A stretch of DNA of 24,000 nt from an uncultured Methylococcaceae bacterium (lineage in GTDB: Bacteria > Pseudomonadota > Gammaproteobacteria > Methylococcales > Methylococcaceae). Of the stretch, positions 5,598 to 21,961 are shown in pieces. A program made the position numbers and the translations under genes. The DNA lies in the NCBI GenBank assembly GCA_964582755.1, contig CAZOTR010000003.1, forward strand, positions 1 through 24,000, read 5' to 3'. Each line of letters opens with the position of its first letter. Position 1 is the stretch's first letter. Below the pieces are notes generated by a model. The model did not search any database, was not told the origin of the DNA, and saw only the letters and a list, made by a program, of their open reading frames with translations.

Positions 5598-5718
5598 TTC
5601 CCTGCCGCAATGCCGTCATTGCCGGCAAAAATCCTGCCGAAGCCAGACGCGCCCCCTGTCACTGCCGTGCAGTGACAGGGGGCGGCTGCGGCAACCTGCG
5701 CGGCTTCCGGGGCAAAAT

Positions 5719-5747
5719 TTGACATGACGGCCAGATGATGGCAGGAT
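5719..5747 (+). promoter_or_regulatory. Possible sigma70-type promoter upstream of orphan repeat copy A
   Basis: TTGACA (5719-5724), a 17-nt spacer ending in TGg, then CAGGAT (5742-5747; weak -10, 3/6 match). This would start transcription a few nt before the element at 5763. Sequence-only guess. Confidence 0.25.
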
Positions 5748-5762
5748 TTTGACCGCTCAACC

Positions 5763-5965
5763 GTGGCGGCTGCGTCCTCAGCCGCACCCTTTGCCGCCGT
5801 GTGCCTACACTTCCGGCGGCGGGCCTTCTGGCCCCGTAGGCGTTCCCCAGGCTCCGGCCTGTTCACTTCGGGATCGACGATCCCTCTGGTTCTATCCTAG
5901 CCAGCAGTCCCCTTTCCAAGGGAAGGTTTCCGGCACACCCACGTTGCGGTTTTCCCGCAACGCAC
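5763..5965 (+). repeat. Structured ICE leader element, copy A (orphan; 5' two-thirds conserved, 3' part diverged)
   Basis: gtggcggctgcgtcctcagccgcaccctttgccgccgtgtgcctacacttccggcggcgg ... cacttcgggatcgacgatccctct aligns with copies B, D, E and F. No T-tract, no conserved RBS and no adjacent gene. Confidence 0.75.
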
Positions 5966-6417
5966 CCATCCAGTTGGTTCCTGCCAACGTCCTTCCAGTG
6001 GCTGAAGCGGCGCGTCTTTGTTTGCCCGCGAAAGCGACTTCTCCCTCGCCCTGATGGCACGGCTTGCCGTGTCCTTAATGGCCGCTTCCAACTTGCCAGC
6101 GTGGTATCGCAATCCGCCACCAAGGCTCCCTCTAAATCGCTTGATACTGCGGCAACGCGGTTTTAGGCACCACGCACAGCCAGCCAAGCCGTCGGGCTTG
6201 CTGTGAGGAATAATACCTACGACGCTTCGACGATTGTTTGCAACAGCAGAACACGCCGAACCGCATATGCGGGCCTGTTTTATCGGATTGACAGCACGCC
6301 TTTTCCCTTCGGGGGTCTCGATTCCATCGAGTCGGCATTAACACTTACCCTGCGACAAATCCGCGAACAAATTACTGGATTATCCTGAATTATTATTCCT
6401 GATGTTTATGAGGCCGT

Positions 6418-7296: not shown

Positions 7297-7432
7297 AAAT
7301 GCTTAACCAACAAAACTAATTCGATGGGTAGCGAAAACCCTTGCAAAAGGCTGACAAGGTTTTCGCTGGATAGCGTATCCCTGCGGCAGGATAATCCAGC
7401 CTGCCATTTGATTTGACCACAAGGCGAACGAC

Positions 7433-8776
7433 ATGCGTGTCCTGCTGGGTTCCAACGCTTACCTGAAGCGCACCGAGAACCGGGATGTCCCGGTCGTCTG
7501 GGACAGCCGCACGGCGATCAATCCGCACGTGTTGGTGATGGGCGCGTCCGGGGCTGGCAAGACCTGGAATCTGCGGCGGATGATCCAGGCTATGGCGAAA
7601 ACTGCCGATGGCCCGGTGCGCATCTATGTGTTGGATGTCCACGGCGACATTGATTTGGCCGGTGCGTCCACCGTGAAGTTTTCCGAAGCCACGGCCTATG
7701 GCCATAATCCATTGGCAGTCAGTCCAGACCGTGATGGCGGTGGCGTCCGCCGACAGATTCAGTCCTTCATTGCGGCGCTGAACCGGACTTCCCGGCAATT
7801 GGGAACTCGGCAAGAGGCGGTATTACGCGCGCTGCTGACCGACCTCTACGCCGCCAATGGATTCTACGAGGACAAGCCGGATAGCTGGCGGCTGGATGAC
7901 GGGATAGCGCGGAAATACCCGAAGAAATATCCGACTCTGCTGGATGCCGCCCGCTTCTCGGCGGCCAAGCTCAGGGCGCTATATCTTGGGGCCGACGCCA
8001 AAGCGGTGGCCGCATTGGAGCAAGTCAACGCGAAGGCGAGGTCGATATACGCCAGGAACAAGGCGATGGGGCAGATACGGCAGACCTTGGGGAACGCCCA
8101 GGCCGATAAGCCTCCCGCCGATCCCGAATTGGACAAACTGAAAGAAGCGGCGATAGCGGCCTATAGCGCTGCAATCCAAGGCATAGCCACCGGGCGCGAG
8201 TTGGACGACCTGATCCGCTACGACTCCAAGGACGTGCTGCGTAGTGTGGTGGAGCGATTGGAAAGCCTGAATGCCATCGGCATCTTCCGGCCGGACGAAC
8301 CGCCGTTCGACCCCAAGATCCCGGTGTGGCGTTATGACATCCGCTCCCTCGCCTCGGACGAGAAAAAGCTGTTCGTCTATTTCCGGCTCGAACAGATATT
8401 CCGGCAGGCTGCCCTGCGCGGGGTTCAGGGTCGGGTATCGGAAGTGGTCGTATTGGACGAGGCGCATTTGTTTTTCACCGACGAGGCGGAGAACCCGTTG
8501 AATGTCGTCGCCAAGGAAGCGAGGAAGTTTGGCTTGGGGCTGGTCTGCGCCAGCCAATCCCCCACGCATTTCAGCGAGGATTTCCTCGGCAACGTCGCCA
8601 CCAAGATGCTGCTGGGCATCGACGAGATGTATTGGGACGGCGCGGTGCGCAAGCTCAAGATCGACCCGAAGATCCTCCACTACGTCACCCCTAGGCGCAG
8701 CCTGGCCGTGCAGATCAAAACCGGAACAGAGAACCGGGCGCGGTTCGTCGGTGTCGATTTGTCCTCTGCGCGATGA
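7433..8776 (+). CDS. HerA/FtsK-like (DUF87-type) P-loop ATPase
   Basis: 447 aa. Walker A: VLVMGASGAGKTWN. Walker B: VVVLDEAHLFF. Followed by AKEARKFGLGLVCASQSP, typical of HerA/VirB4/FtsK-type ATPases. Confidence 0.7.
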   Translation: MRVLLGSNAYLKRTENRDVPVVWDSRTAINPHVLVMGASGAGKTWNLRRMIQAMAKTADGPVRIYVLDVHGDIDLAGASTVKFSEATAYGHNPLAVSPDRDGGGVRRQIQSFIAALNRTSRQLGTRQEAVLRALLTDLYAANGFYEDKPDSWRLDDGIARKYPKKYPTLLDAARFSAAKLRALYLGADAKAVAALEQVNAKARSIYARNKAMGQIRQTLGNAQADKPPADPELDKLKEAAIAAYSAAIQGIATGRELDDLIRYDSKDVLRSVVERLESLNAIGIFRPDEPPFDPKIPVWRYDIRSLASDEKKLFVYFRLEQIFRQAALRGVQGRVSEVVVLDEAHLFFTDEAENPLNVVAKEARKFGLGLVCASQSPTHFSEDFLGNVATKMLLGIDEMYWDGAVRKLKIDPKILHYVTPRRSLAVQIKTGTENRARFVGVDLSSAR

Positions 8777-8859
8777 AATTCAGAAAGAGGGCAGGGGAGG
8801 GAACACGTTTTGTCCCGAACCCATTGCACAATCATCAAACCTGACCGAAAGGTATTCAC

Positions 8860-9510
8860 ATGTTCAAACGATTTTCCTTACTGCAGCCATTGGCCCTGTT
8901 TGCCTTCTTGTCCGGCTTGGCATTTATTCCTGTCCAGGCTGGGGCGGATGAACTCATGCAAAGCAATCTGGGAACGTCGCCGGCATGGAAGTCATGGGAT
9001 CGGATGACCGTCACCGCGCCCCGATCACTGTCCAAGACCAAAACCCTCCAGCTTCCCGATTTCCTGCTGAAGATATGGGCGAATGAAATTGCCGCGAATG
9101 ACGATAAATACTTGAAGGACGGCAACGGACAACTCATTAAAAATGGACATGCGCCTGCCGAAGCGCTGTATTCGGTGTACCACGATGGCGATCTGACGGT
9201 AATCGTCAGCCTGTTGAACACCGCCAAGTATTGCCAGGACGGCCCAAATGATTCCGCCAGCACCCAGATTCACTCCACCTGCCCCGTCCGCGTGACCGTG
9301 ACGCGGGGCGGTGAGTCCAAGAGCCTTAATTATCCCGAGGCGTGTTTCCTGGATATTAGCTACGGCAATCCGCCCGGTGGCCCAGACCCTCTCACCAACG
9401 CATCGCTGACCCGGTATGACCGGCAGGCAGGCGTGGTCGAGCTGGTGGCGATCCGCGACAACCGGTCCCTGCCCGAGTGCGCAAAACAGTTGAAGGTTCC
9501 GCCCCTGTGA
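8860..9510 (+). CDS. Secreted protein of unknown function
   Basis: 216 aa. N-terminal signal peptide MFKRFSLLQPLALFAFLSGLAFIPVQA|GA. No family recognised. Confidence 0.6.
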   Translation: MFKRFSLLQPLALFAFLSGLAFIPVQAGADELMQSNLGTSPAWKSWDRMTVTAPRSLSKTKTLQLPDFLLKIWANEIAANDDKYLKDGNGQLIKNGHAPAEALYSVYHDGDLTVIVSLLNTAKYCQDGPNDSASTQIHSTCPVRVTVTRGGESKSLNYPEACFLDISYGNPPGGPDPLTNASLTRYDRQAGVVELVAIRDNRSLPECAKQLKVPPL

Positions 9511-10379
9511 TTGGACTGTTCCGTTCCCTACTGCTGATGCTGGCGCTGTTTTCAGCGGCACCGGCTTCGGCCCAACAGTTGGGGCCGAAAGTGGTAGTGA
9601 CTGCCGCACAGGTTGCCGCCGCCATCAGTAATTCCCCGTTGAGTCCCAGCCTCCAGGCTTATGCCGCCGATATTGGCAAGCTGGCGATCAACGTCGAATC
9701 GGGCGGCAATCTGGGTGTTTATAACGGAACCTGCTGCACAGGCGTGTTGCAGGTGAACAAAGGCGGCTTGGCGAAGTATTGCGATTGTACCTCGGAGGAA
9801 TACGCCAACATGTCCCTCCAACAGCAGGTCGATGTGTGGGCAAAACTCACTAACGCCAATGCCAATAACTCGACCGTTCAGGGTTTGATGGGAATGGGTA
9901 GTTTTGGCGAGAAGCCGGTGACCGGGGCGATGGTGCTGTCGTGCATCCAGATCGGGCCGGGTAATTGCGCCAAGACGATTAAGGCGGGGACTTGCGCGAC
10001 CAGCGCCGGATCGGACGGCAACGGCAACAACTTCTGCGACTTCGCGGCCAAGATCAATGGCGCGAGCGGTTCCAGTCCCGTGGCCATAACCGATATCAAC
10101 ACGCCGTCGGGCGCGGCCCCGCCTTTGCTGCCGAGCGCGAATTACCAGTATCCTTCCACCGAGGACGCTTTTCTTACCGGGGCTGGGGTGGATATGTCCC
10201 AGTCGAAAGACCTGGTGTTGTCGGCGTTGTCGGTGGCGATGTTCCTGTGGACTGCCTGGGTGGCGCTGGCCCAGTACGGCTCGTGGCGGCAAGGCCGCAT
10301 CGACTGGATGACCCTGCAAACCAATATCATCGGCTCGACCGTCTTGACGCTGTTGGTTCTCGGCCTGACGCTCGCCTGA
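9507..10379 (+). CDS. Exported, C-terminally membrane-anchored protein, possibly lysozyme/SLT-like
   Basis: Start moved to GTG 9507, which forms a GTGA overlap with the upstream stop. This gives the signal peptide VIGLFRSLLLMLALFSAAPASA|QQ. The segment INVESGGNLGVYNGTCCTGVLQV is reminiscent of the ES...G..Q lytic-transglycosylase motif (weak). It is Cys-rich and has two C-terminal hydrophobic helices. Confidence 0.5.
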   Translation: MIGLFRSLLLMLALFSAAPASAQQLGPKVVVTAAQVAAAISNSPLSPSLQAYAADIGKLAINVESGGNLGVYNGTCCTGVLQVNKGGLAKYCDCTSEEYANMSLQQQVDVWAKLTNANANNSTVQGLMGMGSFGEKPVTGAMVLSCIQIGPGNCAKTIKAGTCATSAGSDGNGNNFCDFAAKINGASGSSPVAITDINTPSGAAPPLLPSANYQYPSTEDAFLTGAGVDMSQSKDLVLSALSVAMFLWTAWVALAQYGSWRQGRIDWMTLQTNIIGSTVLTLLVLGLTLA

Positions 10380-10388
10380 TTTCCAAGC

Positions 10389-10598
10389 GTGGCGGCTGCG
10401 TTTTCAGCCGTACCCTTTGCCGCCGTGTGCCTACGCTTCCGGCGGCGGATTCCCCAGGGAATCCTGTAGGCGTCACAGGCCGCAAGGCCTTTCCACTTCG
10501 GGATCGCCGATCCCTTCTTTTCACCACACCCGACGGGGAAACACAGCCCCGCCGGGGGCTGCGTTTCCCCGTTTTTTCATTCAAAGCGGAGAAACACC
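10389..10598 (+). repeat. Structured ICE leader element, copy B (full, short form)
   Basis: Six successive hairpins, including gccgccg/cggcggc, ggattcc/ggaatcc, aggcc-gcaa-ggcct and gggatc/gatccc. The last is the nested terminal hairpin cggggaaac...gtttccccg + T6, then GGAGAAACACC-ATG of the DUF3577 gene. Confidence 0.85.
10534..10577 (+). terminator. Intrinsic-terminator-like hairpin + T6 inside copy B, 21 nt upstream of the ATG
   Basis: cggggaaac-acagccccgccgggggctgc-gtttccccg followed by tttttt. GC-rich 9-bp outer stem with an inner 7-bp stem. Confidence 0.5.
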
Positions 10599-11051
10599 AT
10601 GAGCGACAACACAAATACCCCATCCAATTATTTTGACTTGCATGTGACCGGCCTGGGCTATCTGAACCGTGTCCGGGAGGTCAAGGTTCCGCGCGGCAAG
10701 CCATTTTTGGCCGCGAGCATCGCGGCCCTGCACGGCGCGTCGGACTCGGTTGAAAAGACTTGGTTCGACGTGCGCGTCTCCGGGCAGGAGGCGCAGAAGG
10801 TGGTCCGGGATCTGATGCCCGACGCCGAAGCCGGCAAATCGGTTTTGGTCGGCTTCAAACTGGGCGACCTGACTGCGGAAACCTTTGTTTACGAGAAAGG
10901 CCCGAAGGCCGGACAAACCGGCGTCAGCCTGAAAGCCCGGCTGCTACGCATCGCCTGGGCCAAGGTTGACGGCAAGACGGTCTACACGGCCCCGAAAGAC
11001 GCCCAGCCCGCCGACGACAGGCAAGGCAGCGCCTTGCCCGAAGCGGCCTGA
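10599..11051 (+). CDS. DUF3577-family SSB-like ICE protein (STY4534-type)
   Basis: 150 aa. YFDLHVTGLGYLNRVREVKVPRGKPFLAASIAALHG ... VSLKARLLRIAWAKVDG matches my memory of the DUF3577/STY4534 family conserved in SPI-7/PAPI-1/ICEclc-type elements. Confidence 0.75.
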   Translation: MSDNTNTPSNYFDLHVTGLGYLNRVREVKVPRGKPFLAASIAALHGASDSVEKTWFDVRVSGQEAQKVVRDLMPDAEAGKSVLVGFKLGDLTAETFVYEKGPKAGQTGVSLKARLLRIAWAKVDGKTVYTAPKDAQPADDRQGSALPEAA

Positions 11052-11180
11052 CCGTTGGCTCCATCTGCCGCCCGCCAGAAACCGCAAGGTTTTCTGGTAG
11101 GCGGCTCCTATAGCCAATTCAATCGCCCAATTCTTCAATCCAAATTTTCAAGCAAGTGTTGTAAACTTTGATCTTCACTC

Positions 11181-11245
11181 GTGGCGACTGCGACTCAGCC
11201 GCACCCTTTGCCTAGGCTTTCCAGGCGTGTCTGCGCTTCCCTGGA
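11181..11245 (+). repeat. Structured ICE leader element, copy C (partial: first two hairpins only)
   Basis: gtggcgactgcgactcagccgcaccctttgcc is near-identical to copies E and F. The second hairpin keeps the loop cgtgtctgcgcttc, but its stem is replaced by ccagg/cctgg. Confidence 0.6.
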
Positions 11246-11474
11246 CGCGATAATCTATCTTCCGTCGATCAACGTAATCTTCGGATGGTCGCGAGCAGAC
11301 GTCCCAAACCGCCCATTGACATGACAGCGGTTCTAACCAGCGTCGGTATGTGAAAAGCCCGCCGCGTTTTCCAATTCGTCCGGGGATTTAAGCGTCCCCG
11401 GACACCCCACAACCCTGACAGGGCACTTGCCCGGTCATGGGAAGTGCCTTGCGTTTTCAGCAAGAGGCAACCCC

Positions 11475-12077
11475 ATGATCAACTTATCAGGAAATCTTTA
11501 CATACGTTCGGTCCACGGCCGCAACGGCGATTTCTCGGTCGGCCGGCTGGTCACCGACATTGGCGAGTTCGTCCTGCGCGACGAGTTCCTTAGGCAGTAC
11601 GGCGAGGGCCATTACCAAGGCGAGTTCGGCATTGCCGAAATCTTCCCGGCCAGCTATGTGGCTGGAGGCCGCATGGTGATCGAAATCCGCGCCACTTTGG
11701 CTTCATTGGCCTTGGCGGCGATTGACGACCTGCCCGGCGGGCAAGCGGAATCCGCAGTATCGGCGGAATCTGCTCTGATTGGCCCGGAAGCCGGGGAAGC
11801 TACGCCCCCATCCAAAGCGACATCCAGGCGCAACAAGCCGGGTGTGGCGAAACCTCCAAACGATGGACAGCCTGCCCAAAACGAGATATTTCCCCCCACG
11901 GGAGATGCCTGCGACGACGGGGCCGACGCTCATTTGTTCGGTGCCTTGTGGCCGCTGGGCGACACCGTGAGGCTGGACACATCGGTCAGCCGGGCCTTGT
12001 TCCGCCAGCAAAAAGAGCGGATGAAGGCGCTGGGGTACACGTTCCAAGCGTCCGGCCAACTGTGGGTTCGGACGTGA
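11475..12077 (+). CDS. DUF3275-family ICE protein
   Basis: Start chosen at ATG 11475 (MINLSGNLYIRSVHGRNGDFSVGRLVTDIGEFVLRDE...YVAGGRMVIEIRA). This N-terminal pattern is what I recall for DUF3275. The upstream part of the track ORF (from 11427) has no RBS support. Confidence 0.65.
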   Translation: MINLSGNLYIRSVHGRNGDFSVGRLVTDIGEFVLRDEFLRQYGEGHYQGEFGIAEIFPASYVAGGRMVIEIRATLASLALAAIDDLPGGQAESAVSAESALIGPEAGEATPPSKATSRRNKPGVAKPPNDGQPAQNEIFPPTGDACDDGADAHLFGALWPLGDTVRLDTSVSRALFRQQKERMKALGYTFQASGQLWVRT

Positions 12078-12127
12078 AATTCCTGGCGCAAGGCTTTGCC
12101 TTGCGCCCGGCAACCGGATTTCCAAGC

Positions 12128-12341
12128 GTGGCGGCTGCGTTTCCAGCCGCACCCTTTGCCGCCGTGTGCCTACGCTGCCGGCGGCGGATTCCCCAAGGAA
12201 TCCTGTAGGCGTCTTAAGGCCTCAAGGCCTTTTTCACTTAGGGATCGCCGATCCCGTCTTTTCACCACACCCAGCGGGAGAACGCATCCCCGCGCCGGGT
12301 CTGCGTTTCTCCGTTTTTTTCATTCCATTCGGAGAAACGCC
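12128..12341 (+). repeat. Structured ICE leader element, copy D (full, short form)
   Basis: Collinear with copy B, including the shared 5' flank gatttccaagc. Terminal hairpin + T7, then GGAGAAACGCC-ATG. Confidence 0.85.
12275..12320 (+). terminator. Intrinsic-terminator-like hairpin + T7 inside copy D, 21 nt upstream of the ATG
   Basis: cgggagaacgca...tgcgtttctccg followed by ttttttt. Confidence 0.5.
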
Positions 12342-13253
12342 ATGAGCAACAAGCACGAAATCACTTATACCCTCGGCTACCTGCACCGGGTCACGGTGGG
12401 GGTTGAAGCCGACAACGGGGAGGCGGCGCTGCGCATCGCCCAACAAGCTTTTGATAACGGTTTGATCTGGGACGACACCCCGGCCATGCCGCTGTTGTAC
12501 GACGATTTTGAGGAGAACGGCGACGGTTTGGACTGGGAAGTCCAGGCGGTCGAGGCGTTTAGCCAGCAAGATCCTTCCGTCAAGGTTCTACAGGCCCAGC
12601 GGAAGGCGTTGGAAGCCTGCCGGGCACTGGTTGCCGCCTATGCAGCCGGCGAAGAGGGCGACGGTTCCGTGTCTTGGGAAGACCTGGACTCCGTGCATGG
12701 GCTTGCCCGGCAAGCCCTGGCTTTGCTGGACGATTCCGCGATGGCATCCGCCCGCGCCACCGGCCCCAAAGCTAGGAAGTTGGCGGAAGCGGATTCGGCG
12801 CGCCCAAGCGATGCGTCTTCACTGCCCACGGTGGCCGATGTCCCACTGCGCCGCATCGTCGAGAGACTGGCGCAGTTGAAGATGTGGGATTTCGACGAAC
12901 GCGACGCCGATGACGACGGAAGCCTGGCCGCCAAGGAAATCGACGACGAAACGGATTGGCTGGACAGCCACATTTTGCTGATGACTTTCATCCGCGATGC
13001 CAGGAGGGCATTGCAGTCCGCCAAGCCTCCGCGTCTGGCCGTTGTGCTGGAGGTCGGAATCGTCCATGCGGTGGTGTCGGACAACGCCGTTGATCTGGCG
13101 GTGGCCGTCATCGACTACGACATCGAAGGTGCCGATGACGATGAATTGTCTTCGGTTCCGCAGGGCGACGGCACCTGCGTGGATGCCGTGGTGGGTTGCT
13201 GGAATGCGACCCCGGCGGCCATCGACCTTGACGCGGTGTTTGCCGCTTCATGA
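12342..13253 (+). CDS. Acidic hypothetical ICE protein
   Basis: Start chosen at ATG 12342 (MSNKHEITYTLGYLHRV...), directly after the conserved GGAGAAACGCC. The 82 codons upstream in the track ORF lie in repeat copy D. Asp/Glu clearly outnumber Lys/Arg by eye. No family recognised. Confidence 0.6.
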   Translation: MSNKHEITYTLGYLHRVTVGVEADNGEAALRIAQQAFDNGLIWDDTPAMPLLYDDFEENGDGLDWEVQAVEAFSQQDPSVKVLQAQRKALEACRALVAAYAAGEEGDGSVSWEDLDSVHGLARQALALLDDSAMASARATGPKARKLAEADSARPSDASSLPTVADVPLRRIVERLAQLKMWDFDERDADDDGSLAAKEIDDETDWLDSHILLMTFIRDARRALQSAKPPRLAVVLEVGIVHAVVSDNAVDLAVAVIDYDIEGADDDELSSVPQGDGTCVDAVVGCWNATPAAIDLDAVFAAS

Positions 13254-13296
13254 AGACCCAGCGTTTGACTGAAACCCATGCCCGGAGGAGGAAACC

Positions 13297-14382
13297 ATGA
13301 ACGCCCGTAAACTCGAAGCAGGCCCAGTCCGCGAGGCGGTGCGGGGGCGCTGGGTGCCGGTGCTGCAAGCATTGGCACCCGAATTGGACGCGGCGCTGGC
13401 TAAACCCGGCAGGCATGTGGCTTGCCCGATGCATGGCGGTCGCGATGGGTTCCGCCTGTTCAAAGATGCGGAAACTTCCGGTGGCGGGATCTGCAACACC
13501 TGCGGCGCGTTTCCCGACGGCTTCAGCCTGTTGCAGTGGCTCAAGGGCTGGAATTTTCCGCAGGCGCTCGGGGCGGTGGATGCAGCCATCGGCGGCGTGG
13601 CTTTGACCCGCGTGGCTTTGTCAGAACCGGCGTTGCCGGCCAAGACTCAACCCCGCAAGACTGCCTCCGAAGACGGCCAAATCCGTCGGCGTCTGGCGGA
13701 GACCTGGGCGCAATCCGAGCATTGGCGGGATGCCCTGTCCCAACCGCTGCGGGACTACCTGGCCCATCGCGGTTTGGACACCGGCATTTTGCAAGGCGTG
13801 GAGGCCATCCGCTTCCATCCGGGCTTGCGCTACCACGACGAGGACGGCCACTACGGCGGCACGTTTCCGGTCATGCTGGCTCGGGTGTCCGACGCGCACG
13901 GCAAACCGGTGACACTCCACCGCACTTACCTGACCGAAGCGGGCAGGAAAGCGTCGGTGGAAAACCCGAAGCGAATGATGCCGGTGCCATCGGATCAACC
14001 GGTCTTGGGCGGCGCTATTCGCTTAGGCGTTGCCGAGCCGGTCATCGATTTGGCCGAAGGCATCGAAACCGCCTTGGCCGTGCGCCAGGCAACCGGGCTT
14101 CCGGTGTGGAGCGCGGTCAGCGCCACGCTGTTGGCGGGCTTCGATCCACCGCCCGGAACCCACAAGCTGCGGATCTGGTGCGACCGGGACCGCAAGGGCG
14201 TAGGCGAGGAGGCGGCGCAGAAACTGGCGGAGCGTCTCGCTGAGAGGGGCATTCCAACCGAGTTGCTGATTCCGCCCGAGGCGATGCTTCGGGATGGCAA
14301 AAGCGTTGACTGGTTGGATGTCCTCAACGAGTACGGTTCTGCGGTTTTCCCGCTGTCGCCAAATCGGTGGGCGGCGGCATAA
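13297..14382 (+). CDS. Primase-like protein: P4-alpha-type zinc ribbon + Toprim domain
   Basis: 361 aa. RBS GGAGGAGGA. Zn-binding pattern HVACPMHGG ... ICNTCG. Toprim Glu in IDLAEGIETALAV and an acidic cluster in WCDRDRKGVGEEAAQ. No helicase domain is attached. Confidence 0.75.
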   Translation: MNARKLEAGPVREAVRGRWVPVLQALAPELDAALAKPGRHVACPMHGGRDGFRLFKDAETSGGGICNTCGAFPDGFSLLQWLKGWNFPQALGAVDAAIGGVALTRVALSEPALPAKTQPRKTASEDGQIRRRLAETWAQSEHWRDALSQPLRDYLAHRGLDTGILQGVEAIRFHPGLRYHDEDGHYGGTFPVMLARVSDAHGKPVTLHRTYLTEAGRKASVENPKRMMPVPSDQPVLGGAIRLGVAEPVIDLAEGIETALAVRQATGLPVWSAVSATLLAGFDPPPGTHKLRIWCDRDRKGVGEEAAQKLAERLAERGIPTELLIPPEAMLRDGKSVDWLDVLNEYGSAVFPLSPNRWAAA

Positions 14383-14429
14383 GGGCAGGTTCTGACTTGG
14401 CCTGAGAGTGTTGTTTTGTTGTTCGACCC

Positions 14430-14488
14430 ATCCGGGGAAATTCCCCGGACTGGGGGGTTCTCCGGACTTTAACCTGAGGAGAAACCCC
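14430..14488 (+). repeat. Structured ICE leader element, copy H (terminal-hairpin module only, no T-tract)
   Basis: ccggggaaattccccggactggggggttctccgg aligns with the terminal module of copy F (ccggggaaacctttccccggcgggacaggtttctccgg). It is followed by GAGGAGAAACCCC-ATG. Confidence 0.55.
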
Positions 14489-15565
14489 ATGCAGATAGAG
14501 ATAGTAAAACTTTTCCGGGTGGCGGATGTGTTCGGCCTTTACGCCGACGCCTTCGTCCAAGACCGGCAGTCCGGCCAGTTGATCTTCGCCTCCTTCTGGG
14601 GGCGTGACACGACTATCCAGGAACTGCTGGCGCGGCTTACTTTGTCGTCATCGGAAGGCGGTCTGGCCTCGCTGGACTTCAACCCGTGCGACAACCCGGA
14701 CAACGGGCTGAACGTGTCCATCGGCGATCCGAACCGGCTCGACAAGTTGACTGGCAGGATGCCCGCCGACAATTTGTTCGGCGCGGTGGCGCAGTTGTGG
14801 CTCTATGACCGCAAGGCCGTGGAACCCGATCATGCCAGCCGTCGGGCTTTGTTGCTGACCGGCGAAGACGTGTCCGACGGGCAATGCGGCAGCGCACCTG
14901 AGGACGAAAAGGTCTGGGCGCTGTTCAAGACGGTATCCCATCTGCCATTGCTCGACCACTGGCGGCAGGTATTGATTTCGGTCGCATTGTCCTGTGGCTG
15001 GCTGCGGATACACCCAGGCTTCCAGGTCAACGCGATTGAGTTGGATCTGGGCGTGGAGGACTACGAAGCCACGGTCAGCGAGTTGATCCGGCAAGGGCGC
15101 TTGACCCTCGAAGCGGGTGAGCCTCAAGCCGCACGGGAAGCCGATCCATTGCCCACGGTAATGTCGGCGTCAACCGATGAGAATCCGGTAACCACAGGGC
15201 GTTTGTCGGCGGAGCAGCTTGAGGATGGCTTGGCGCAATTCTACGGAACCCAACAATGGTTTCCGCATTGGCTCGTCAAGAACATGCTCTACACGGAAGG
15301 CGTCCAGTTTTTCGCCGAACAAGGCGGGGAGCAGGGGGCTTTCTGGTTTTTGGATATTGTGGCGACGGAATATTTTCAACTGCAACGGCAGGAGCCGTTC
15401 ATGCTGATCAAGCTGACCTCCAAGGACAAAAAAGCCACCGTCCAGGTGGAAAACGGCAATGGCCGGGTGTTGAAGGAAAAGAAGATCGAATACACGGATC
15501 TTCAGCCCGGCGTCTGGAAGTTTTACCTGACGGATGATGTTTTGCTGTTGCCCGGCGAGTATTGA
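14489..15565 (+). CDS. Hypothetical ICE protein with a DUF6876-like C-terminal domain
   Basis: Start chosen at ATG 14489 (MQIEIVKLF...) after the RBS GAGGAGA. The C-terminal ...YTEGVQFFAEQGGEQGAFWFLDIVATEYF...GVWKFYLTDDVLLLPGEY resembles the DUF6876 family as I recall it. Confidence 0.6.
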   Translation: MQIEIVKLFRVADVFGLYADAFVQDRQSGQLIFASFWGRDTTIQELLARLTLSSSEGGLASLDFNPCDNPDNGLNVSIGDPNRLDKLTGRMPADNLFGAVAQLWLYDRKAVEPDHASRRALLLTGEDVSDGQCGSAPEDEKVWALFKTVSHLPLLDHWRQVLISVALSCGWLRIHPGFQVNAIELDLGVEDYEATVSELIRQGRLTLEAGEPQAAREADPLPTVMSASTDENPVTTGRLSAEQLEDGLAQFYGTQQWFPHWLVKNMLYTEGVQFFAEQGGEQGAFWFLDIVATEYFQLQRQEPFMLIKLTSKDKKATVQVENGNGRVLKEKKIEYTDLQPGVWKFYLTDDVLLLPGEY

Positions 15566-15583
15566 TATTCGCCCCAGGCGGCA

Positions 15584-15855
15584 CCCCCCAGTGATTGGGG
15601 GGCTTCTTTAAGCCACCCCGACCGGGGCGGCTTAAAGAAGTCTCCGAGCAACAACGTGGCGACTGCGTTCTCAGCCGCACCCTTAGCCGTCGTGTGCCTA
15701 CACGTCCGACGGCGGATGCCGTTGGTGTCCCGTAGGCGTCACAGGCGATTAGCCTCTTCACTTCGGAACCGACGGTTCCATTTTTCCATAACCCGACGGG
15801 GAAGCCTTTCCCCTAAGGGGCAAGCTTCGCCGTTTTTTCCAATCGGAGAAGCGCC
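15584..15855 (+). repeat. Structured ICE leader element, copy E (full, long form)
   Basis: An extra 5' module: C6-agtgatt-G6 hairpin plus a 12-bp perfect stem cttctttaagcc/ggcttaaagaag. Then the common core from gtggcgactgcg (15656). Then the terminal hairpin + T6 and GGAGAAGCGCC-ATG. Confidence 0.85.
15794..15838 (+). terminator. Intrinsic-terminator-like hairpin + T6 inside copy E, 17 nt upstream of the ATG
   Basis: cgacggggaagc...gcttcgccg followed by tttttt. Confidence 0.5.
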
Positions 15856-16269
15856 ATGAACCAACATCAACATCAGCCGACATCCGGCCTGATTTACCCC
15901 TGTGACCGCTGCGGCCAGGCCAACCAGATCGTCAACCAATGCGGCTGCGATCCGGCCAACCTGCCCACTTTTGTCCAAGCGGACGACCGTTTAGTCGAGT
16001 CACTGCTCGTATTGACTGAGTTCGTCAACAACGTTAAGAACTCCAAAGCCCGGGTGGTTGCCAGCATTCTGGTCGCGCTCTGGAATGAAGACCGCGTAGT
16101 CCCCCATCTGCAATGGGTGGCGATGCTGGATCCTGTCACTTTCGAGCACGTCCTCAATGTGCTGCGGCTGGTGGCTACCGGGATACCCCTCGAAAGATTC
16201 TTGCAAGGAGGATCGGACGTTTTTGAGGGGATCATTCGGAGATATAACTTCAAGCAGAGCATCCCGTGA
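15856..16269 (+). CDS. Hypothetical ICE protein
   Basis: 137 aa. Conserved leader/RBS context directly upstream. N-terminal CDRCG...NQCGC Cys pairs. No family recognised. Confidence 0.55.
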   Translation: MNQHQHQPTSGLIYPCDRCGQANQIVNQCGCDPANLPTFVQADDRLVESLLVLTEFVNNVKNSKARVVASILVALWNEDRVVPHLQWVAMLDPVTFEHVLNVLRLVATGIPLERFLQGGSDVFEGIIRRYNFKQSIP

Positions 16270-16372
16270 ATGCGTAGGCCCAGCCTGCGCGTCATGGGAG
16301 AAATCCGGCCAGCCGGTTCGTGACTGGCGGGCTGCTTCGCTGACTTAAGGATTGGCCTCCAATTCTGATAAA

Positions 16373-16508
16373 CCGCCGCGTGCCTGCGTTGTCGGCGGCC
16401 ACCCGACAAGGGTGGGGCAGGCGTCTTTTTACTTACCTTTCGGGGAAACCTTCCCCGGCAGGGCGTGGTTTCTCCGCGAGGATCATTCCAATCCGACAGG
16501 AGAACACC
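16373..16508 (+). repeat. Structured ICE leader element, copy G (degenerate: hairpin 2 + terminal module, no T-tract)
   Basis: ccgccg-cgtgcctgcgttgt-cggcgg corresponds to hairpin 2. cggggaaaccttccccggcagggcgtggtttctccg corresponds to the terminal module. Then AGGAGAACACC-ATG. Confidence 0.55.
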
Positions 16509-17345
16509 ATGCGCCAGAACCAATTGGTTTCAAAATTTAGACACTTGAGCGGGTTCGCCAAGGCCAACGCGCCGTTGACCGACGATGAAATCCGCCGTGC
16601 GGCCCCCTCGATCTTTGCGGCCAATCCGCACGGGTCGCGCTCGGAGCGCTATACCCTGATCCCGACCATCGACGTGCTGACGGCACTGCGCAAAGAAGGG
16701 TTTCAGCCCTTCATGGTCGTGCAGGCCGGGGTGCGCAATGAAGACCGCTTGGACTTCACCAAGCACATGATCCGGCTGCGCCACGAAAGCCGGATCAATG
16801 GCGCGGAGGCCAACGAGGTGATCCTCGTCAACTCCCACGACGGGTCGAGTTCCTACCAGATGCTCGGCGGCGTTTACCGCTTCGTCTGCCACAACGGGCT
16901 GATCTGCGGCGACACGGTTGAAGACCTGCGGGTCAAGCACCGTGGCGACGTGGTGGGCCAGGTCATCGAGGGGGCTTACACCATCTTGAAGGACTTCGAC
17001 CGGGTGGACGCTTCCAAGGGCGAGATGAAAGCTTTGGAACTTGACGATGGCGAGCAAAGAGCCTTCGCCCGTGCCGCTTTGGCGATGCGCTACGAGGAAG
17101 GCAAGGAAGTGCCGGTCACCGAAGACCAGGTGTTGCGACTGCATCGACGTGAGGACGACGCCGACAACCTCTGGACCACGCTGAATGTAGTCCAGGAGAA
17201 TCTGGTGCGGGGCGGACTGCGAGGCCGCAATGCCAAGGGCCGCAGGGTCACAACCCGGCCTGTCCAAGGCATCGACCAGAACGTGCAATTGAACCGGGGC
17301 CTTTGGGTGCTGGCCGAGGAGATGCGCAAGCTCAAGGCGGCTTGA
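16509..17345 (+). CDS. DUF932 (DUF945)-family protein
   Basis: Start chosen at ATG 16509. PLTDDEIRRAAPSIFAANPHGSRSERYTLIPTIDVLTALRKEGFQPFMVVQ is the characteristic N-terminal pattern of DUF932 proteins common on ICEs and plasmids. Confidence 0.8.
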   Translation: MRQNQLVSKFRHLSGFAKANAPLTDDEIRRAAPSIFAANPHGSRSERYTLIPTIDVLTALRKEGFQPFMVVQAGVRNEDRLDFTKHMIRLRHESRINGAEANEVILVNSHDGSSSYQMLGGVYRFVCHNGLICGDTVEDLRVKHRGDVVGQVIEGAYTILKDFDRVDASKGEMKALELDDGEQRAFARAALAMRYEEGKEVPVTEDQVLRLHRREDDADNLWTTLNVVQENLVRGGLRGRNAKGRRVTTRPVQGIDQNVQLNRGLWVLAEEMRKLKAA

Positions 17346-17438
17346 TACCCGAAAGGGAATGGCTCACTAACCCGCGAGGGGCATCAGCCCTCGCGGCGCC
17401 TGGATGCCCCTCGTTTTCCAATCACGAGGAGCATCACC

Positions 17439-18545
17439 ATGGCGTTAATGTTTCAACGGCTGGCGAGAAATTTCGCCGCGAACGGGTATTACCCTACCGA
17501 CGAGTCCACCATCGAACGGATATTGTCGATGCTGCGGCCCAGCCCACAGGGGACGATGAAACTCATCGACCCCTGCGCGGGCGAAGGGGTGGCGCTGGCT
17601 GAATGCAAGCACCATCTGGGCGCGGATCGCGCTGAGGCCTTCGGCGTGGAATTACATAAAGAGCGGGCCTGGAATGCGAAGGAAATCCTGGATCGTGTCA
17701 TCCACGGCGATTTCCAGGAGACCACGATCAGCTACCGCCGGTTCGGGTTGCTCTGGTTCAACCCGCCTTACGGCGATCTGGTCAGCGACCAGGGTTCCAC
17801 AGGCGACGACGGCGGCTCGGGGCGGCAACGCTTCGAAAAACTGTTTTACCACCGCGCCTACCGGCTGTTGCAGCCGGGCGGCGTCATGGTCTTGATAGTG
17901 CCGCATTATTCCCTAGACAAGGAGTATGCGGGCTGGATCGCGGGCTATTTTGAACGGGTCGAGGCGTTTCTGTCGCCCGGACAGCGTTTCAAGCAGGCCG
18001 TGGTGGTCGGGGTCAGGGCGAATGCCTGGCAATCCGGCGACGCGGCCAAGCGGGTGCGGGAACGGCTGCAAAGCCTGTCCCGTGGCGAAGCCGATACCCT
18101 GCCTGAAACCTGGGACGGCGAGCCTTACGAAATCCCCGAGGACAAGGGGCAGGCGGTCGAATTCACCGCCAAGCGTCTGGATCATGCCCAGCTTGCGGAG
18201 GAAATCCGCCGCCATCCCTGCCTGTGGCCGCAATTTGAATTGCACTTGGGCCGGGTGGGCAAGACCCAGCGTCGGCCCTTGCGGGCGCTCTCCCGCTGGC
18301 ATCTGGCCTTGTCGCTTGCGGCAGGCCAAGTTTCCGGGGTCGTCCGTTCCAATGACGGCAGCCGGGTGTACGTGGTCAAAGGCGACACCTTCAAGGGCAA
18401 GACCGTGAAGACCACGTTCGAGGAGGCCGAATCCGGGCATTTCGTCGAGATACGCACGGCGACGGATGTGTTCAAGCCGGTGATCCGGGCCTTGGACTTC
18501 ACACCGGGCAGCGAAACCTTCGGGCAGGCTTTGGTCATCCGATGA
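17439..18545 (+). CDS. SAM-dependent N6-adenine DNA methyltransferase-like protein (orphan)
   Basis: 368 aa. Motif I: LIDPCAGEGVAL. Motif IV: LLWFNPPYG (NPPY). No restriction-endonuclease gene is recognisable next to it. Confidence 0.75.
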   Translation: MALMFQRLARNFAANGYYPTDESTIERILSMLRPSPQGTMKLIDPCAGEGVALAECKHHLGADRAEAFGVELHKERAWNAKEILDRVIHGDFQETTISYRRFGLLWFNPPYGDLVSDQGSTGDDGGSGRQRFEKLFYHRAYRLLQPGGVMVLIVPHYSLDKEYAGWIAGYFERVEAFLSPGQRFKQAVVVGVRANAWQSGDAAKRVRERLQSLSRGEADTLPETWDGEPYEIPEDKGQAVEFTAKRLDHAQLAEEIRRHPCLWPQFELHLGRVGKTQRRPLRALSRWHLALSLAAGQVSGVVRSNDGSRVYVVKGDTFKGKTVKTTFEEAESGHFVEIRTATDVFKPVIRALDFTPGSETFGQALVIR

Positions 18546-18705
18546 CAGGGGCAGGCCGGAGGGATTGCGGAAAAGTTTGAGTTTCAACCCTCGCTGGCAT
18601 CGCCAGTGATTTTAACCACCGCCTTGCGGAGACGAACATGCTCTCCGCAAGGGGTAGCCGTGTTTCGTTTCCCAGGGCTTTTTTTTATCCTTGAGGAGAA
18701 CTGAT

Positions 18706-20490
18706 ATGGCTACAGAAACCACGTTGAAAGTGAACCAGGAGCGGCTGGTCAAAAATCTGCGCTTCAGCTTTACCGACGCCACCACGGTGTTGGGCGAGCT
18801 AATGCAGAACGCCCGCCGGGCCGGTGCGACGAAGGTCGTGATCGACTTTAACCCTGAGTCCAAGACCCTGGTGGTTTGCGATGACGGCTGCGGGATTGAC
18901 TGTTTTCAGACGCTGCTGACCGTGGCGGAATCGGGTTGGGACGCCGAGCTGGTCGAGCGTGAACATCCGTTTGGCATCGGCTTTTTGTCGGCGCTGTTCG
19001 CTTGCGAACACCTGACGGTGGAAAGCCGGGGCCAGCGGATCGCCATGCCGACGGCGGACATCCTGTCCTTCCAGCCGGTGGCGGTCACGCCGGTCATCCG
19101 CTGCCCGGTGGAACCCCGCTTCGAGGGCGACGCCTGCGGCTGCGGGTCGGACAATCTGACCGGCCCGGACGACGAAGGCGTTTACGATTGTTACGACTGC
19201 GGCTTGTTTTTCACCGCCGAAGCCATCGGCCAAGGCGAACGCTGGAACGGCGTGACGACCGTCAAGCTGGACGGCTTCAAGCCCGAACCCGGCAAGGTGG
19301 CAGGCCGCTTGGCGGCTTTGGCCGAGGGTTTTCCCATTCCGGTGGTGTTCAACGGCGAGGCACTCAAGCGGCCTTGGGCGCTGGACTCGGGACGCGAGTT
19401 CATCCAAACCGGGGTTGGCCAGGTTTACCTGAAAGGGTTTGGCGCCGGCGAGGCGTGGACGGCATCGGTGGAGGATCTGCATATCTACTTGCAAGGCTTG
19501 CCGGTTTACCAAACGCCGCGCAGTTGGCACCGGGGGGACAACAGCAATGTGATCCACCTGGATTCCTCGCTGTTCCACGCGAGGCTTCCCGACCGTGACA
19601 AACTGGTCGATGAAGACAAGGTGGTCAAGCAGGTGGCTGATGCCGTCAGGCAGGAGGTCATTCTGAGAATCCAGGCGTTGGCGGACAGCCTTGAACCCGA
19701 GGCGTTTGCCAAAGGCTATGACACACTTAGGAAATGGGATTGCCTTGAGTTGTTGAACGACATTCCGGTCATTCCCCGGCAAGTGCTGTCCTTCATCCAG
19801 AGCTATCCCATCAAGGAAGGTGCTTATCCGGTGAATCTCGACCAGGCGGAAACCGTCACCCGCGAGGATGTGGAGACTGGCAAGGTCTCCATCGCCCAAT
19901 TGGAATGTTTCAGTGAGGAGAACGCGCCGCACTGGATGTACGCTTGGCACAAGGGGATGCTGGTATATGACCATCCTTTGCACAGCGGCCATTGGCTGCA
20001 CCAGCATATGGTCGAGATGGACGGGCAGCCCGTCCAGGTGGAGATCGTCGGCGAGACCCACCGGGCCAATTTCGAAGGCCAGTGGGTGTGCGGCGACGCG
20101 GTGTTTTGCGAGAAGTACCGCCTGACCTTCGATGGCGATACGGTCGATATCGAAGGCGATTCGATCTATCTGGAGGACGATGGGCTGTTCGTGGTGCCGA
20201 AGTGTGACGCCTCCGGCTCTGTGGTGAACCAAGCCTGTTCGTACTTTGACGAGAACGACAGCTACAACCAGTCGGTCAAGGACGAGGACGACTGGGCGTT
20301 TGAGAAGTTCGTCGTGGCCAACACCTCGGCGAATCCGGCGAAAGCCCTGGAACGCCTGCTGCCATCTTTTGCGGGCTGCCCCAAGGTATTCGGCAGGCGC
20401 TTCACGCTGGAACTGGATTCGTCCGGGAAAGTCGTGTCGGTGGAGGAATCGTTGGACGGCAAGCTTGCAGGGCAAGGGATGGAGGGATAA
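18706..20490 (+). CDS. GHKL-superfamily (MutL/MORC/Hsp90-like Bergerat fold) ATPase with a Cys-rich insert
   Basis: Start chosen at ATG 18706 after the RBS GAGGAGA. N box: LGELMQNARRAGA. G1 box: VCDDGCGID. G2-like: HPFGIGFLSALF. The insert ...DACGCGSDNL...VYDCYDCGLFF (CxC ... CxxC) is zinc-ribbon-like. The large C-terminal region is not recognised. Confidence 0.7.
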   Translation: MATETTLKVNQERLVKNLRFSFTDATTVLGELMQNARRAGATKVVIDFNPESKTLVVCDDGCGIDCFQTLLTVAESGWDAELVEREHPFGIGFLSALFACEHLTVESRGQRIAMPTADILSFQPVAVTPVIRCPVEPRFEGDACGCGSDNLTGPDDEGVYDCYDCGLFFTAEAIGQGERWNGVTTVKLDGFKPEPGKVAGRLAALAEGFPIPVVFNGEALKRPWALDSGREFIQTGVGQVYLKGFGAGEAWTASVEDLHIYLQGLPVYQTPRSWHRGDNSNVIHLDSSLFHARLPDRDKLVDEDKVVKQVADAVRQEVILRIQALADSLEPEAFAKGYDTLRKWDCLELLNDIPVIPRQVLSFIQSYPIKEGAYPVNLDQAETVTREDVETGKVSIAQLECFSEENAPHWMYAWHKGMLVYDHPLHSGHWLHQHMVEMDGQPVQVEIVGETHRANFEGQWVCGDAVFCEKYRLTFDGDTVDIEGDSIYLEDDGLFVVPKCDASGSVVNQACSYFDENDSYNQSVKDEDDWAFEKFVVANTSANPAKALERLLPSFAGCPKVFGRRFTLELDSSGKVVSVEESLDGKLAGQGMEG

Positions 20491-20493
20491 GCC

Positions 20494-21000: not shown

Positions 21001-21248
21001 TCCGCGACGTGTTTGTGGTGATCTACGAGCATCGGCACGGCATGGACGTGGCGGCCCATGCCTCACACGGGCAGGCCTACGCCGCCGTGGCTGAAATTGC
21101 GCGAACCTGGTGGCAGGAACGCGCCGACCGGGCGGCACCGGAGGATTGTGCCGCGCTGTCCGACGAGGAAGTGGTCAATGCTTATTTCGACGGGCACGAA
21201 AGCGAGTTCTACAGCATTGAGAACTCAAAAGTCGATTTTCCCGATTGA
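20997..21248 (+). CDS. Small hypothetical protein
   Basis: 83 aa. ATGA overlap with the upstream ORF, suggesting translational coupling. No family recognised. Confidence 0.45.
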   Translation: MIRDVFVVIYEHRHGMDVAAHASHGQAYAAVAEIARTWWQERADRAAPEDCAALSDEEVVNAYFDGHESEFYSIENSKVDFPD

Positions 21249-21284: not shown

Positions 21285-21553
21285 CCCCCCTTGCGGGGGG
21301 CTTCTTTAAGCGCCCCGGCGCGGGGTGCTTAAAGAAGCCTCAGAAAAAAACCGTGGCGACTGCGTTCTCAGCCGCACCCTTTGCTGCCGTGTGCCTACAC
21401 TGCCGGCGGCGGATACCTTGGTATCCCGTAGGCGTCATAGGCTGGAAGCCTTTCCATTTCGGGATCGACGATCCCTCTTTTTACCACCCGACCGGGGAAA
21501 CCTTTCCCCGGCGGGACAGGTTTCTCCGGTTTTTTTTGCATTGGAGAAACACC
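21285..21553 (+). repeat. Structured ICE leader element, copy F (full, long form)
   Basis: C6-ttgc-G6 hairpin and cttctttaagc/gcttaaagaag stem. Common core from gtggcgactgcg (21353). Terminal hairpin + T8. GGAGAAACACC-ATG. Confidence 0.85.
21493..21538 (+). terminator. Intrinsic-terminator-like hairpin + T8 inside copy F, 15 nt upstream of the ATG
   Basis: ccggggaaacct...aggtttctccgg (one G-U pair) followed by tttttttt. Confidence 0.5.
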
Positions 21554-21961
21554 ATGAACCCGCAACACCTTCAACTTTACCGGGAACTGCGCCAACAAGG
21601 GCTTGCCTCGCGCTACGCGCTGGCTTGCTCACGGGCGCGGATGGCCCTCGAATCCAAATGCGCGGCGACAGGCTTTGAATGGCGGGAAGACCGCCATGGC
21701 CTGCTGTACGCCTGCTGGCAAGAGGAGGGCTTTGACTTGATGGCCGCCGTCGTCATCGACGAGGACGGCTGGTGCGTAAGCGGCGTGGATTTCATCGGCC
21801 GGTTTACCAGCCGCTGGGAATCCGGCGCGATCCGCCACCACCAAGGCGACCGGAATGCCCACAAGTGGTTTATTCCGGCGAACCTGGGCGACCCCAAGGA
21901 GGAATACCGCCGCGCCTGTGCCTTCGGGCGCGACTGGTGGGTGCGACGTGAAGTCGTGTAA
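21554..21961 (+). CDS. Hypothetical ICE ORF, apparently interrupted at 21940/21941 by a group II intron
   Basis: Start chosen at ATG 21554 after the conserved leader. The reading frame runs 7 codons into the inferred intron (…GRDWW|VRREVV*), so the annotated C-terminus is probably not native. The 3' exon would lie beyond the window. Confidence 0.5.
   Translation: MNPQHLQLYRELRQQGLASRYALACSRARMALESKCAATGFEWREDRHGLLYACWQEEGFDLMAAVVIDEDGWCVSGVDFIGRFTSRWESGAIRHHQGDRNAHKWFIPANLGDPKEEYRRACAFGRDWWVRREVV

Follow-up and report, generated by a model that had tools for sequence, protein, structure and literature searches.

Structured leaders of the radC-motif kind before DNA-handling genes of an integrative conjugative element: a candidate attenuator of transcription and translation

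Why should a gene carry what looks like an intrinsic terminator a few nucleotides ahead of its own start codon? The question is raised by a 24,000-nucleotide stretch from an uncultured Methylococcaceae bacterium (contig CAZOTR010000003.1, positions 1 to 24,000; hereafter the window), which is a 57% G+C part of an integrative conjugative element (ICE) of the PAGI-2 / pKLC102 / SPI-7 kind. An earlier inspection of the letters alone (the sequence-only reading) had claimed that four copies of a repeat, B, D, E and F, end in a GC-rich hairpin with six to eight Ts, followed by a conserved ribosome-binding site (RBS) and ATG. All four hairpins are present at the places named, with stems of -22 to -36 kcal/mol and T6-T8; the RBS, GGAGAA(A/G)C(A/G)CC, is there too, and the distance from T-tract to ATG measures 16-21 nt (Table 1). 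A GC-rich stem directly before a U-tract of at least 5-6 is the form of an intrinsic terminator, and the stem and U-tract in the plus-strand RNA support the claim that such a form stands between any upstream start and the coding sequence. The answer that we favour, with a probability of about 0.55, is that each unit is a cis-acting attenuator that locks both the transcription and the translation of the DNA-handling genes of the element and is probably opened by a factor that the element encodes.

The hairpins belong to a larger unit. They form the 3' end of a ~220-nt repeat that has five full copies with a mean column identity of 74%. Runs of T6 or longer occur seven times on the plus strand of the 24 kb, and four of them are the T-tracts of copies B, D, E and F; the window has six occurrences of GGAGAA[AG]C[AGC]CCATG. 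A generic terminator scan, which had a loop limit of 8 nt and saw only the inner stem of copy B, found no overall excess in the window (26 found, 21.9 expected).

The last part of the repeat, the 3' module, consists of ACCC, three segments (S1, S2 and S3) and the Shine-Dalgarno (SD) region, and these can form three mutually competing pairings. In the Alt-1 hairpin, S1 (CGGGGAAAC...) pairs with S2 (...UUCCCCG) and the helix is extended by ACCC through CCC:GGG. In the terminator stem, S1 pairs with S3 (...GUUUCYCCG), followed by U6-U8 in the copies that have a T-tract. In the third pairing, the sequestrator, S3 is the reverse complement of the SD region (CGGAGAAAC...); in copy D, GCGUUUCUCCG lies opposite CGGAGAAACGC and 11/11 bases are complementary. 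S1 itself nearly repeats the SD region, reading GGGG where the SD has GGAG, and the U of CUCC in S3 pairs with the A in the SD and wobbles with the G in S1. RNAalifold run on the window copies selects the S1:S3 stem, with compensatory changes. The complementarity of the 3' arm to the SD region, the mimicry of the SD by the 5' arm and the competition from Alt-1 all go beyond the sequence-only reading, as does the relationship to the radC RNA motif described below. The U-tract can also pair with the purine-rich GGAGAAA of the SD by U-A and U.G pairs across a loop of 4-6 nt (10572-10598, 15833-15855 and 21530-21553), which can provide a weak extra route to masking of the SD.

Matching triplets of S1, S3 and SD are specific to lineages. 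Two such triplets are GGGGACACGT / ACGTGTCTCC / GGAGATGCGT and GGGGAATACCAT / ATGGTATTTTTC / GGAGAAATACCAT; the module at 17370-17441 has CGAGGGGCAUC / GAUGCCCCUCG / CGAGGAGCAUC, and further matching triplets are GGGGACACGU / ACGUGUCUCC / GGAGAUGCGU and GGGGAAUACCAU / AUGGUAUUUUUC / GGAGAAAUACCAU. We compared the pairing energy of each segment with its own partner and with the partners of other lineages, using 22-26 cluster representatives. Own partners gave the more stable pairing for S1:S3 (-17.3 against -12.2 kcal/mol), for Alt-1 (-19.8 against -15.1 kcal/mol) and for the 38-nt upstream region with the stretch from SD to ATG (-15.4 against -12.2 kcal/mol), each with a permutation p <5e-5. 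The last of these is an unbiased version, and replaces a biased one in which S3 had been defined by its best match to its own SD. With the bases after GGAG only, the upstream region still preferred its own partner (-6.25 against -5.09 kcal/mol, p = 2.5e-4), whereas a reversed-SD control showed no significant difference (-8.19 against -7.93 kcal/mol, p = 0.22). Anti-SD pairing of S3 is supported, but not proven, by these comparisons.

Which pairing is the most stable depends on the length of the RNA. At the U-tract, S1:S3 beats Alt-1 in 4/4 window copies (-35.5 against -18.2, -21.8 against -14.9, -21.3 against -14.2 and -27.5 against -22.9 kcal/mol). In the full-length leader the SD-paired fold is more stable in 43/43 leaders, and the U-tract then sits in the loop of the S3:SD hairpin.

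To follow the module among relatives we used 80 metagenome loci that encode relatives (53-94% identity) of the DUF3577 protein, the gene for which starts behind copy B. The 3' module precedes the DUF3577 gene and several neighbouring genes in nearly all 80 loci. A model of the module (R2) gives 174 hits in 59 related loci, with 174/174 on the gene strand, and a model of the 5' domain described below gives 53/54 hits on that strand. On the plus strand G.U pairs outnumber A.C by 59:5 in S1:S3, by 36:4 in S3:SD and by 27:18 in the 5' domain. The G.U excess, the gene-strand hits and the pairing to the SD and start codon point to a sense RNA as the functional form, and not to template-strand DNA or an antisense transcript. 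The 5' domain of the window type is found only in closer relatives and weakly in a marine group. A near-identical element lies on one Gammaproteobacteria contig of a metagenome-assembled genome (MAG); an exact-pattern scan of one genome per species returned 12 stretches, only two of them real and both on one Gammaproteobacteria MAG contig, and blastn searches with copy B found no match in plasmids or E. coli genomes.

In marine relatives (L031, L036, L063, L069 and others; ~4040-4135) there is a 'type 2' module without a T-tract after a radC (JAB) gene. It has a perfect Alt-1 hairpin of 12-14 bp, and AAGGAGGUG follows as a decoy SD. Which start codon is the true one is uncertain, because the conserved ATG has an in-frame GUG 9 codons ahead of it.

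The first part of the repeat is a 5' domain with a compact fold; copy B folds better than its shuffles (z = -6.3). P1 is formed by GCGGCUG and CAGCCGY around a 6-nt loop and is followed by a CCCUUU linker. P2 has 7 bp and a 14-nt loop; P3, directly adjacent, has 7 bp and a tetraloop, and the small hairpins P4 and P5 come next. A GCCUAC in the P2 loop and a GUAGGC one base past P3, both invariant, are complementary and make a pseudoknot. In an alignment of 16 leaders from the window and metagenome relatives, P1, P2, P3 and the pseudoknot are 89.6% paired compared with 76.6% in shuffles (0/500 shuffles reach the observed value), with two-sided changes in 21/27 pairs. The pseudoknot alone is 99% paired with three compensated pairs, its variants being GUCUGC/GCAGAC and GCCUGC/GCAGGC. 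Additionally, a small hairpin of copy E shows the compensatory changes GGAACC/GGTTCC relative to copy B. The 5' domains of different element lineages are not cross-detected by each other's models, while copies within one element are alike. Because the lineages diverge this quickly, the pattern suggests a matched, element-encoded partner rather than a universal metabolite of the kind that a riboswitch would bind.

The leaders resemble a known orphan RNA. The radC motif lies consistently in the 5' untranslated regions of genes whose proteins operate on DNA, and has been marked as a cis-regulatory RNA of uncertain riboswitch status ('? complex'); in proteobacterial mobile elements the genes that it precedes include radC, integrases, methyltransferases and anti-restriction genes (Weinberg et al. 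2010, PMC2864571). The window leaders stand in the same context, upstream of DUF3577/STY4534, primase-operon, DUF932, DUF6094 methyltransferase and integrase-like genes. In pKLC102 (locus L093) three leaders match the Rfam radC model, RF01754, at 82-97 bits, and one of these is directly upstream of the DUF3577 homologue, syntenic to the window. A profile of the window leaders (nhmmer) matches L093 at 5923-6003 and 4815-4902 with E about 1e-6. Because both matches begin directly 3' of radC matches and run through to the ATG, the expression platform of the window leaders is, on this evidence, homologous to that of the pKLC102 radC leaders.

Judged by inspection, the two kinds of leader also have a common plan in the 5' domain: P1 contains CUG/CAG and has GUU in its loop, a CCC linker leads to P2, whose loop is large, P3 is adjacent and has 7 bp, and a pseudoknot joins the P2 loop and the linker after P3. 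Downstream of the radC motif, as in the window, lies the homologous module of Alt-1, anti-SD and SD, which is outside the Rfam model. They differ in the pairing sequences (GAUC/GAUC and AGACC/GGUCU in radC, GCCUAC/GUAGGC in the window) and in the long terminal hairpin of radC (model positions about 118-149), which the window lacks, having the two short hairpins P4 and P5 in its place. Unlike the window copies, the pKLC102 leaders and radC sequences that were inspected have no T-tract. RF01754 gave no match in the window at its gathering threshold (40 bits), nor at E<=10 over 5500-22000, nor at E<=10 when filters were relaxed on 10370-10605; 20 further loci gave no radC match, and the window 5'-domain model did not detect the pKLC102 radC copies with filters off. 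By the Rfam criterion the window copies are not members, and we class them as a divergent variant of the same kind. No functional follow-up of the motif was found in the literature searched, where mentions are confined to the 2010 paper and one paper on structure prediction. The small RNA (sRNA) PesA of PAPI-1 was considered as the same RNA and rejected, as it maps downstream of pilM2 (L093 3980-4330); the radC-type leaders of L093 (4669-4902 and 5746-6003) are unrelated to it. The paper on TprA of PAPI-1 has no content on these leaders.

Where the T-tract occurs bears on what it does. A T-tract (at least 5 T in 8) is found in 29/43 distinct leaders of the window and marine types, and close relatives keep it as T6-T9. 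In the window, the four modules behind a strong 5' domain have T6-T8 and three short modules before internal genes have none. Among 124 distinct modules, which are not phylogenetically independent, a T-run of 5 or more is present in 24/40 with a non-coding leader of at least 120 nt compared with 16/84 with a short gap (odds ratio 6.4, Fisher p = 1e-5). This is the pattern expected of a real terminator, because termination before an internal gene would be polar. The sequence-only reading had listed two partial copies that keep the hairpin without the T-tract. Both do (14426-14491, -23.7 kcal/mol; 16435-16511, -21.4 kcal/mol), but the proposal that they are readthrough variants does not hold up so well, and they are better described as short translation-only modules preceding internal genes. 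The list can be extended by another T-less module (17370-17441), a T8 variant (18622-18708) and two degenerate 5' domains (11174-11304 and 16339-16426).

In pKLC102 (TTGACA-17-GATGAT and TTGACA-17-CATTCT) and in copy A (TTGACA 5719-5724, 17 nt, CAGGAT 5742-5747) sigma70-like promoters precede the leader by 5-9 nt, in copy A just 5' of P1. The only promoter candidate for copy B is weak and falls in the last part of the gene before it. The leaders themselves have no consistent hexamers, and an internal sigma54 or sigma70 promoter was rejected on that ground. Copy A (5719-6417) differs in lacking the usual 3' module; ~530 nt of other structured sequence extend to the integrase-like gene at 6418, an arrangement also seen in MAG contig CAVWEM010000024.1 (L004).

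We propose that each unit acts as a gene-strand, cis-acting 5' leader of the radC-motif kind, composed of the pseudoknotted 5' domain and an expression platform. Formation of S1:S3 ahead of U6-U8 would lead to intrinsic termination, and formation of Alt-1 would leave S3 free to sequester the RBS. The transcript would either end at the U-tract or proceed with its RBS masked, so that termination and masking would be alternative OFF outcomes reached through the common strand S3. The sole form with an open SD would be the S1:S3 stem in a transcript already past the U-tract. Expression would need an input, which may be factor-dependent readthrough past S1:S3 or refolding into the S1:S3 form after transcription, and which presumably comes from a factor that the element encodes to match its own leaders. 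Operons would be headed by the long leaders that have a T-tract, and short modules without one would set the translation of internal genes. The joint effect would be to keep the DUF3577, primase-like, DUF932, methyltransferase and other DNA-handling or establishment genes tightly off until needed. The analysis shows the structures with their competing pairings, the strand, the distribution and the connection with radC; that the leaders terminate transcription and mask the RBS in vivo, and what kind of input activates them, we infer.

Several results weigh against this model. Both of its predicted default states are OFF, neither an ON state nor an activator was identified, and no regulator gene was recognised among the window ORFs (open reading frames) scanned. 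There is no convincing promoter before copies B, D, E or F, and none at all for D, E and F. The T-tract is missing in 14/43 distinct leaders and in bona fide radC leaders, so termination is not the core function of the family. The complementarity of S3 to the SD comes in part simply from CUCC/GGAG and U/A-rich flanks. Counted by column on a MAFFT alignment, S3:SD is paired no better than in shuffles (65.1% and 64.2%), and on a model-fitted alignment of 128 distinct sequences the difference is weak (66.5% and 63.0%); support for S1:S3 counted in this way on the MAFFT alignment is marginal. The model-fitted alignment contains register shifts, for example in the marine group, where the SD is one column off, and the weak S3:SD counts can be attributed to such shifts.

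The hairpins might be plain insulating terminators that are overcome by processive antitermination, through an AlpA, Q or N-like factor or a put-like RNA that is loaded upstream and renders RNA polymerase resistant to terminators, with the 5' domain and S3:SD incidental. Their canonical form and the greater stability of S1:S3 than Alt-1 at the U-tract agree with this, and terminator/antitermination control is used by the conjugative elements pLS20 and Tn916; dependence on antitermination, which had been suggested from the letters alone, stays plausible as the ON switch. However, no AlpA, Q or N-like gene or other regulator gene was recognised among the 30 ORFs scanned in the 24-kb window, and the covarying Alt-1, the lineage-specific S3:SD match, the T-less modules and the T-less radC leaders would go unexplained, which makes us consider insulation alone unlikely. 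We are just as doubtful of a switch that acts on translation only, with S1:S3 as an anti-sequestrator and the U-tract as a loop, a spacer or a U-rich enhancer for ribosomal protein S1. The core architecture does exist without a T-tract in pKLC102 and three window modules, and the greater stability of the SD-paired state, with the U-tract in its loop, would suit such a switch. On the other hand the T-tract comes immediately after a strong stem and is kept in close relatives; modules with long leaders, at operon starts, are enriched in it and those before internal genes avoid it, which fits the avoidance of polarity.

Less credible still is a stand-alone, trans-acting sRNA of ~200 nt from each T-tract copy, to which an Hfq, FinO or ProQ-type chaperone might bind. 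The span of ~190-200 nt between the likely start at P1 and the T-tract, the near-identical cores of the copies and the 3' hairpin with a U-tail, which is the usual chaperone binding site, agree with a stand-alone sRNA, one of the proposals of the sequence-only reading, and it could apply only to the T-tract branch. As a conserved function it is contradicted by the pKLC102 radC leaders, which are bona fide members and have no T-tract or terminator. Moreover, in all R2 hits the unit runs into an RBS and ATG of its own strand, S3 would be locked in the stem of the terminated RNA, and no RNA chaperone gene was found in the window. The structures could also act as single-stranded DNA in transfer, as a Frpo-like promoter or an entry site for primase or primosome, but we think this highly improbable. 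The downstream genes are typical of a leading region or of establishment, the element encodes a primase-like protein, and the minus-strand DNA of copy B also folds well (z = -5.4). Yet -35 and -10 hexamers are absent from the stems, the excess of G.U over A.C is found on the sense strand, which is not the template, and only in mRNA does it make sense for a sequence to be complementary to the SD and start codon.

Table 1. Positions and scores of the leader features in the window
Feature	Position	Strand	Score or energy	Details
Copy A	5756..5885	+	93.2 bits	5' domain and P5 only; different 3' continuation
Copy B 5' domain	10382..10475	+	R1 covariance model, 108 bits	
Copy B helices	P1 10392-10398/10405-10411; P2 10419-10425/10440-10446; P3 10447-10453/10458-10464	+		
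Copy B pseudoknot	10429-10434 with 10466-10471	+	covariation counts	GCCTAC with GTAGGC
Copy B small hairpins	10477..10514	+	folds	P4 10477-10481/10486-10490; P5 10500-10505/10509-10514
Copy B 3' module	10528..10601	+	R2, 69.5 bits	'a' ACCC 10528-10531; S1 10534-10550; S2 10547-10556; S3 10555-10571
Copy B terminator	stem 10534-10571	+	-36.5 kcal/mol	T6 10572-10577; SD region CGGAGAAACACC 10587-10598; ATG 10599; T-tract to ATG 21 nt
Degenerate 5' domain	11174..11304	+	32.3 bits, E = 2e-5	between DUF3577 gene (upstream) and DUF3275 gene (downstream)
Copy D full leader	12121..12344	+	5' domain 107.5 bits; 3' module 72.8 bits	5' domain 12121-12214
Copy D platform	Alt-1 12270-12299; terminator stem 12274-12286/12302-12313	+		S3 and SD region 11/11 complementary
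Copy D terminator	stem 12274-12313	+	-22.2 kcal/mol	T7 12314-12320; SD region 12330-12341; ATG 12342; T-tract to ATG 21 nt
Short 3' module without 5' domain or T-tract	14426..14491	+	55.9 bits	Alt-1; S3 GGGGTTCTCCGG; SD GGAGAAACCCC; ATG 14489, DUF6876
Copy E full leader	15649..15858	+	5' domain 94.4 bits; 3' module 63.2 bits	5' domain 15649-15741; terminator stem 15797-15805/15823-15832; DUF7673 gene
Copy E terminator	stem 15797-15832	+	-22.3 kcal/mol	T6 15833-15838; SD region 15844-15855; ATG 15856; T-tract to ATG 17 nt
Degenerate 5' domain and T-less 3' module	16339..16511	+	31.2 / 36.9 bits	5' domain 16339-16426; 3' module 16435-16511; ATG 16509, DUF932
Short 3' module	17370..17441	+	33.1 bits	S1 CGAGGGGCATC; S3 GATGCCCCTCG; SD region CGAGGAGCATC; TTTT only after stem; ATG 17439, DUF6094 methyltransferase
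Variant module	18622..18708	+	by inspection only	hairpin CCTTGCGGAGA 18622-18632 / TCTCCGCAAGG 18642-18652; T8 18679-18686; ATG 18706, HATPase
Copy F full leader	21346..21556	+	5' domain 98.5 bits; 3' module 70 bits	5' domain 21346-21437
Copy F platform	Alt-1 21487-21515; terminator stem 21492-21502/21518-21529	+		
Copy F terminator	stem 21492-21529	+	-30.1 kcal/mol	T8 21530-21537; SD region 21542-21553; ATG 21554; T-tract to ATG 16 nt

The hairpin of the variant module at 18622-18708 has as its 5' arm a mimic of the SD region CCTTGAGGAGA and as its 3' arm a sequence complementary to that region. Copies E and F are each preceded (15584-15640 and 21284-21339) by a GC hairpin and then TTCTTT, likely the terminator of the upstream gene. 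Next, ~10 nt before P1, lies a long palindrome, GGCTTCTTTAAGC...GCTTAAAGAAGCC, which could be an operator or a bidirectional terminator.

Downstream of a CBASS operon, with which the window opens, all genes lie on the plus strand; they are integrase-like, HerA-like ATPase, TIGR03758 / DUF3262 protein, DUF3577, DUF3275, Zn-ribbon/Toprim primase-like, DUF6876, DUF7673, DUF932, DUF6094 methyltransferase and HATPase; the remaining small ORFs of the window have no Pfam domains. The DUF3577 product is a 'STY4534 family ICE replication protein', for which a sequence search of the PDB gave no match and an AlphaFold single-sequence model was unusable (pLDDT 37.5). The CBASS operon (805-5182), directly upstream of copy A, is a complete type II operon carried as cargo, and encodes a patatin-like effector, a DncV-like cyclase, the Cap2 E1/E2 protein and the Cap3 JAB protein. 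Domains D1-D4 of a group II intron (RF02012, 118 bits) lie at 21995-22145, straight after ORF 21554-21961, the gene behind copy F. The RBS motif GGAGAAGCGCCATG at 20986-20999, within the final codons of ORF 20494-21000, leads into the overlapping ORF 20997-21248, which suggests that the two are translationally coupled.

If the proposed attenuator is right, the radC motif, an orphan since 2010, would gain a concrete mechanism that is open to mutagenesis. The window shows a divergent branch that escapes current Rfam models, and it shows the motif to be just the first half of a larger unit, with the three-way switch of Alt-1, terminator stem and anti-SD as the second half. This bears on how elements such as PAGI-2, pKLC102 and SPI-7 silence, then jointly activate, their DNA-handling and establishment genes. 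The 3' module model could also be used for annotating such leaders and correct start codons.

Three kinds of known system invite comparison. pLS20 conAn and Tn916 have intrinsic terminators before or inside transfer and establishment operons, as the window does. They are Gram-positive systems with dedicated antiterminator genes or RNAs, and share no sequence or structural similarity with the window leaders; the window yielded no such gene. A second kind, attenuators that use termination together with RBS masking, is represented by the trp leader of Bacillus subtilis, with its hairpin that blocks the trpE SD, and by dual-acting riboswitch platforms. In these, as in the window, mutually exclusive hairpins govern both termination and access to the SD. 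The window differs from trp-type attenuators in that a single strand, S3, provides the 3' arm of the terminator as well as the anti-SD, in that the two OFF structures are mutually exclusive, and in having no known effector such as TRAP or a ligand.

The Frpo / ssi promoters of plasmid leading regions are likewise repeated structured elements before early or establishment genes (ssb-like, anti-restriction and methyltransferase genes). Frpo elements function as DNA on the template strand, with -35 and -10 boxes in a long (imperfect) stem, whereas the window leaders have no such boxes, favour the sense strand and pair with the SD. A speculative extension, to which we give little weight, is that radC-type leaders are the RNA-level counterpart of Frpo: a two-level, default-OFF switch before every establishment operon, opened transiently after transfer or during replication of the element by the state of an element-encoded nucleic-acid-binding factor. 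The trigger might, for example, be titration of the DUF3577 'ICE replication protein' by single-stranded DNA, for which the autoregulation of phage T4 gene 32 provides an analogue. As such a counterpart of Frpo, the leader would be in essence a translational switch, to which the T-tract branch would add a real attenuator.

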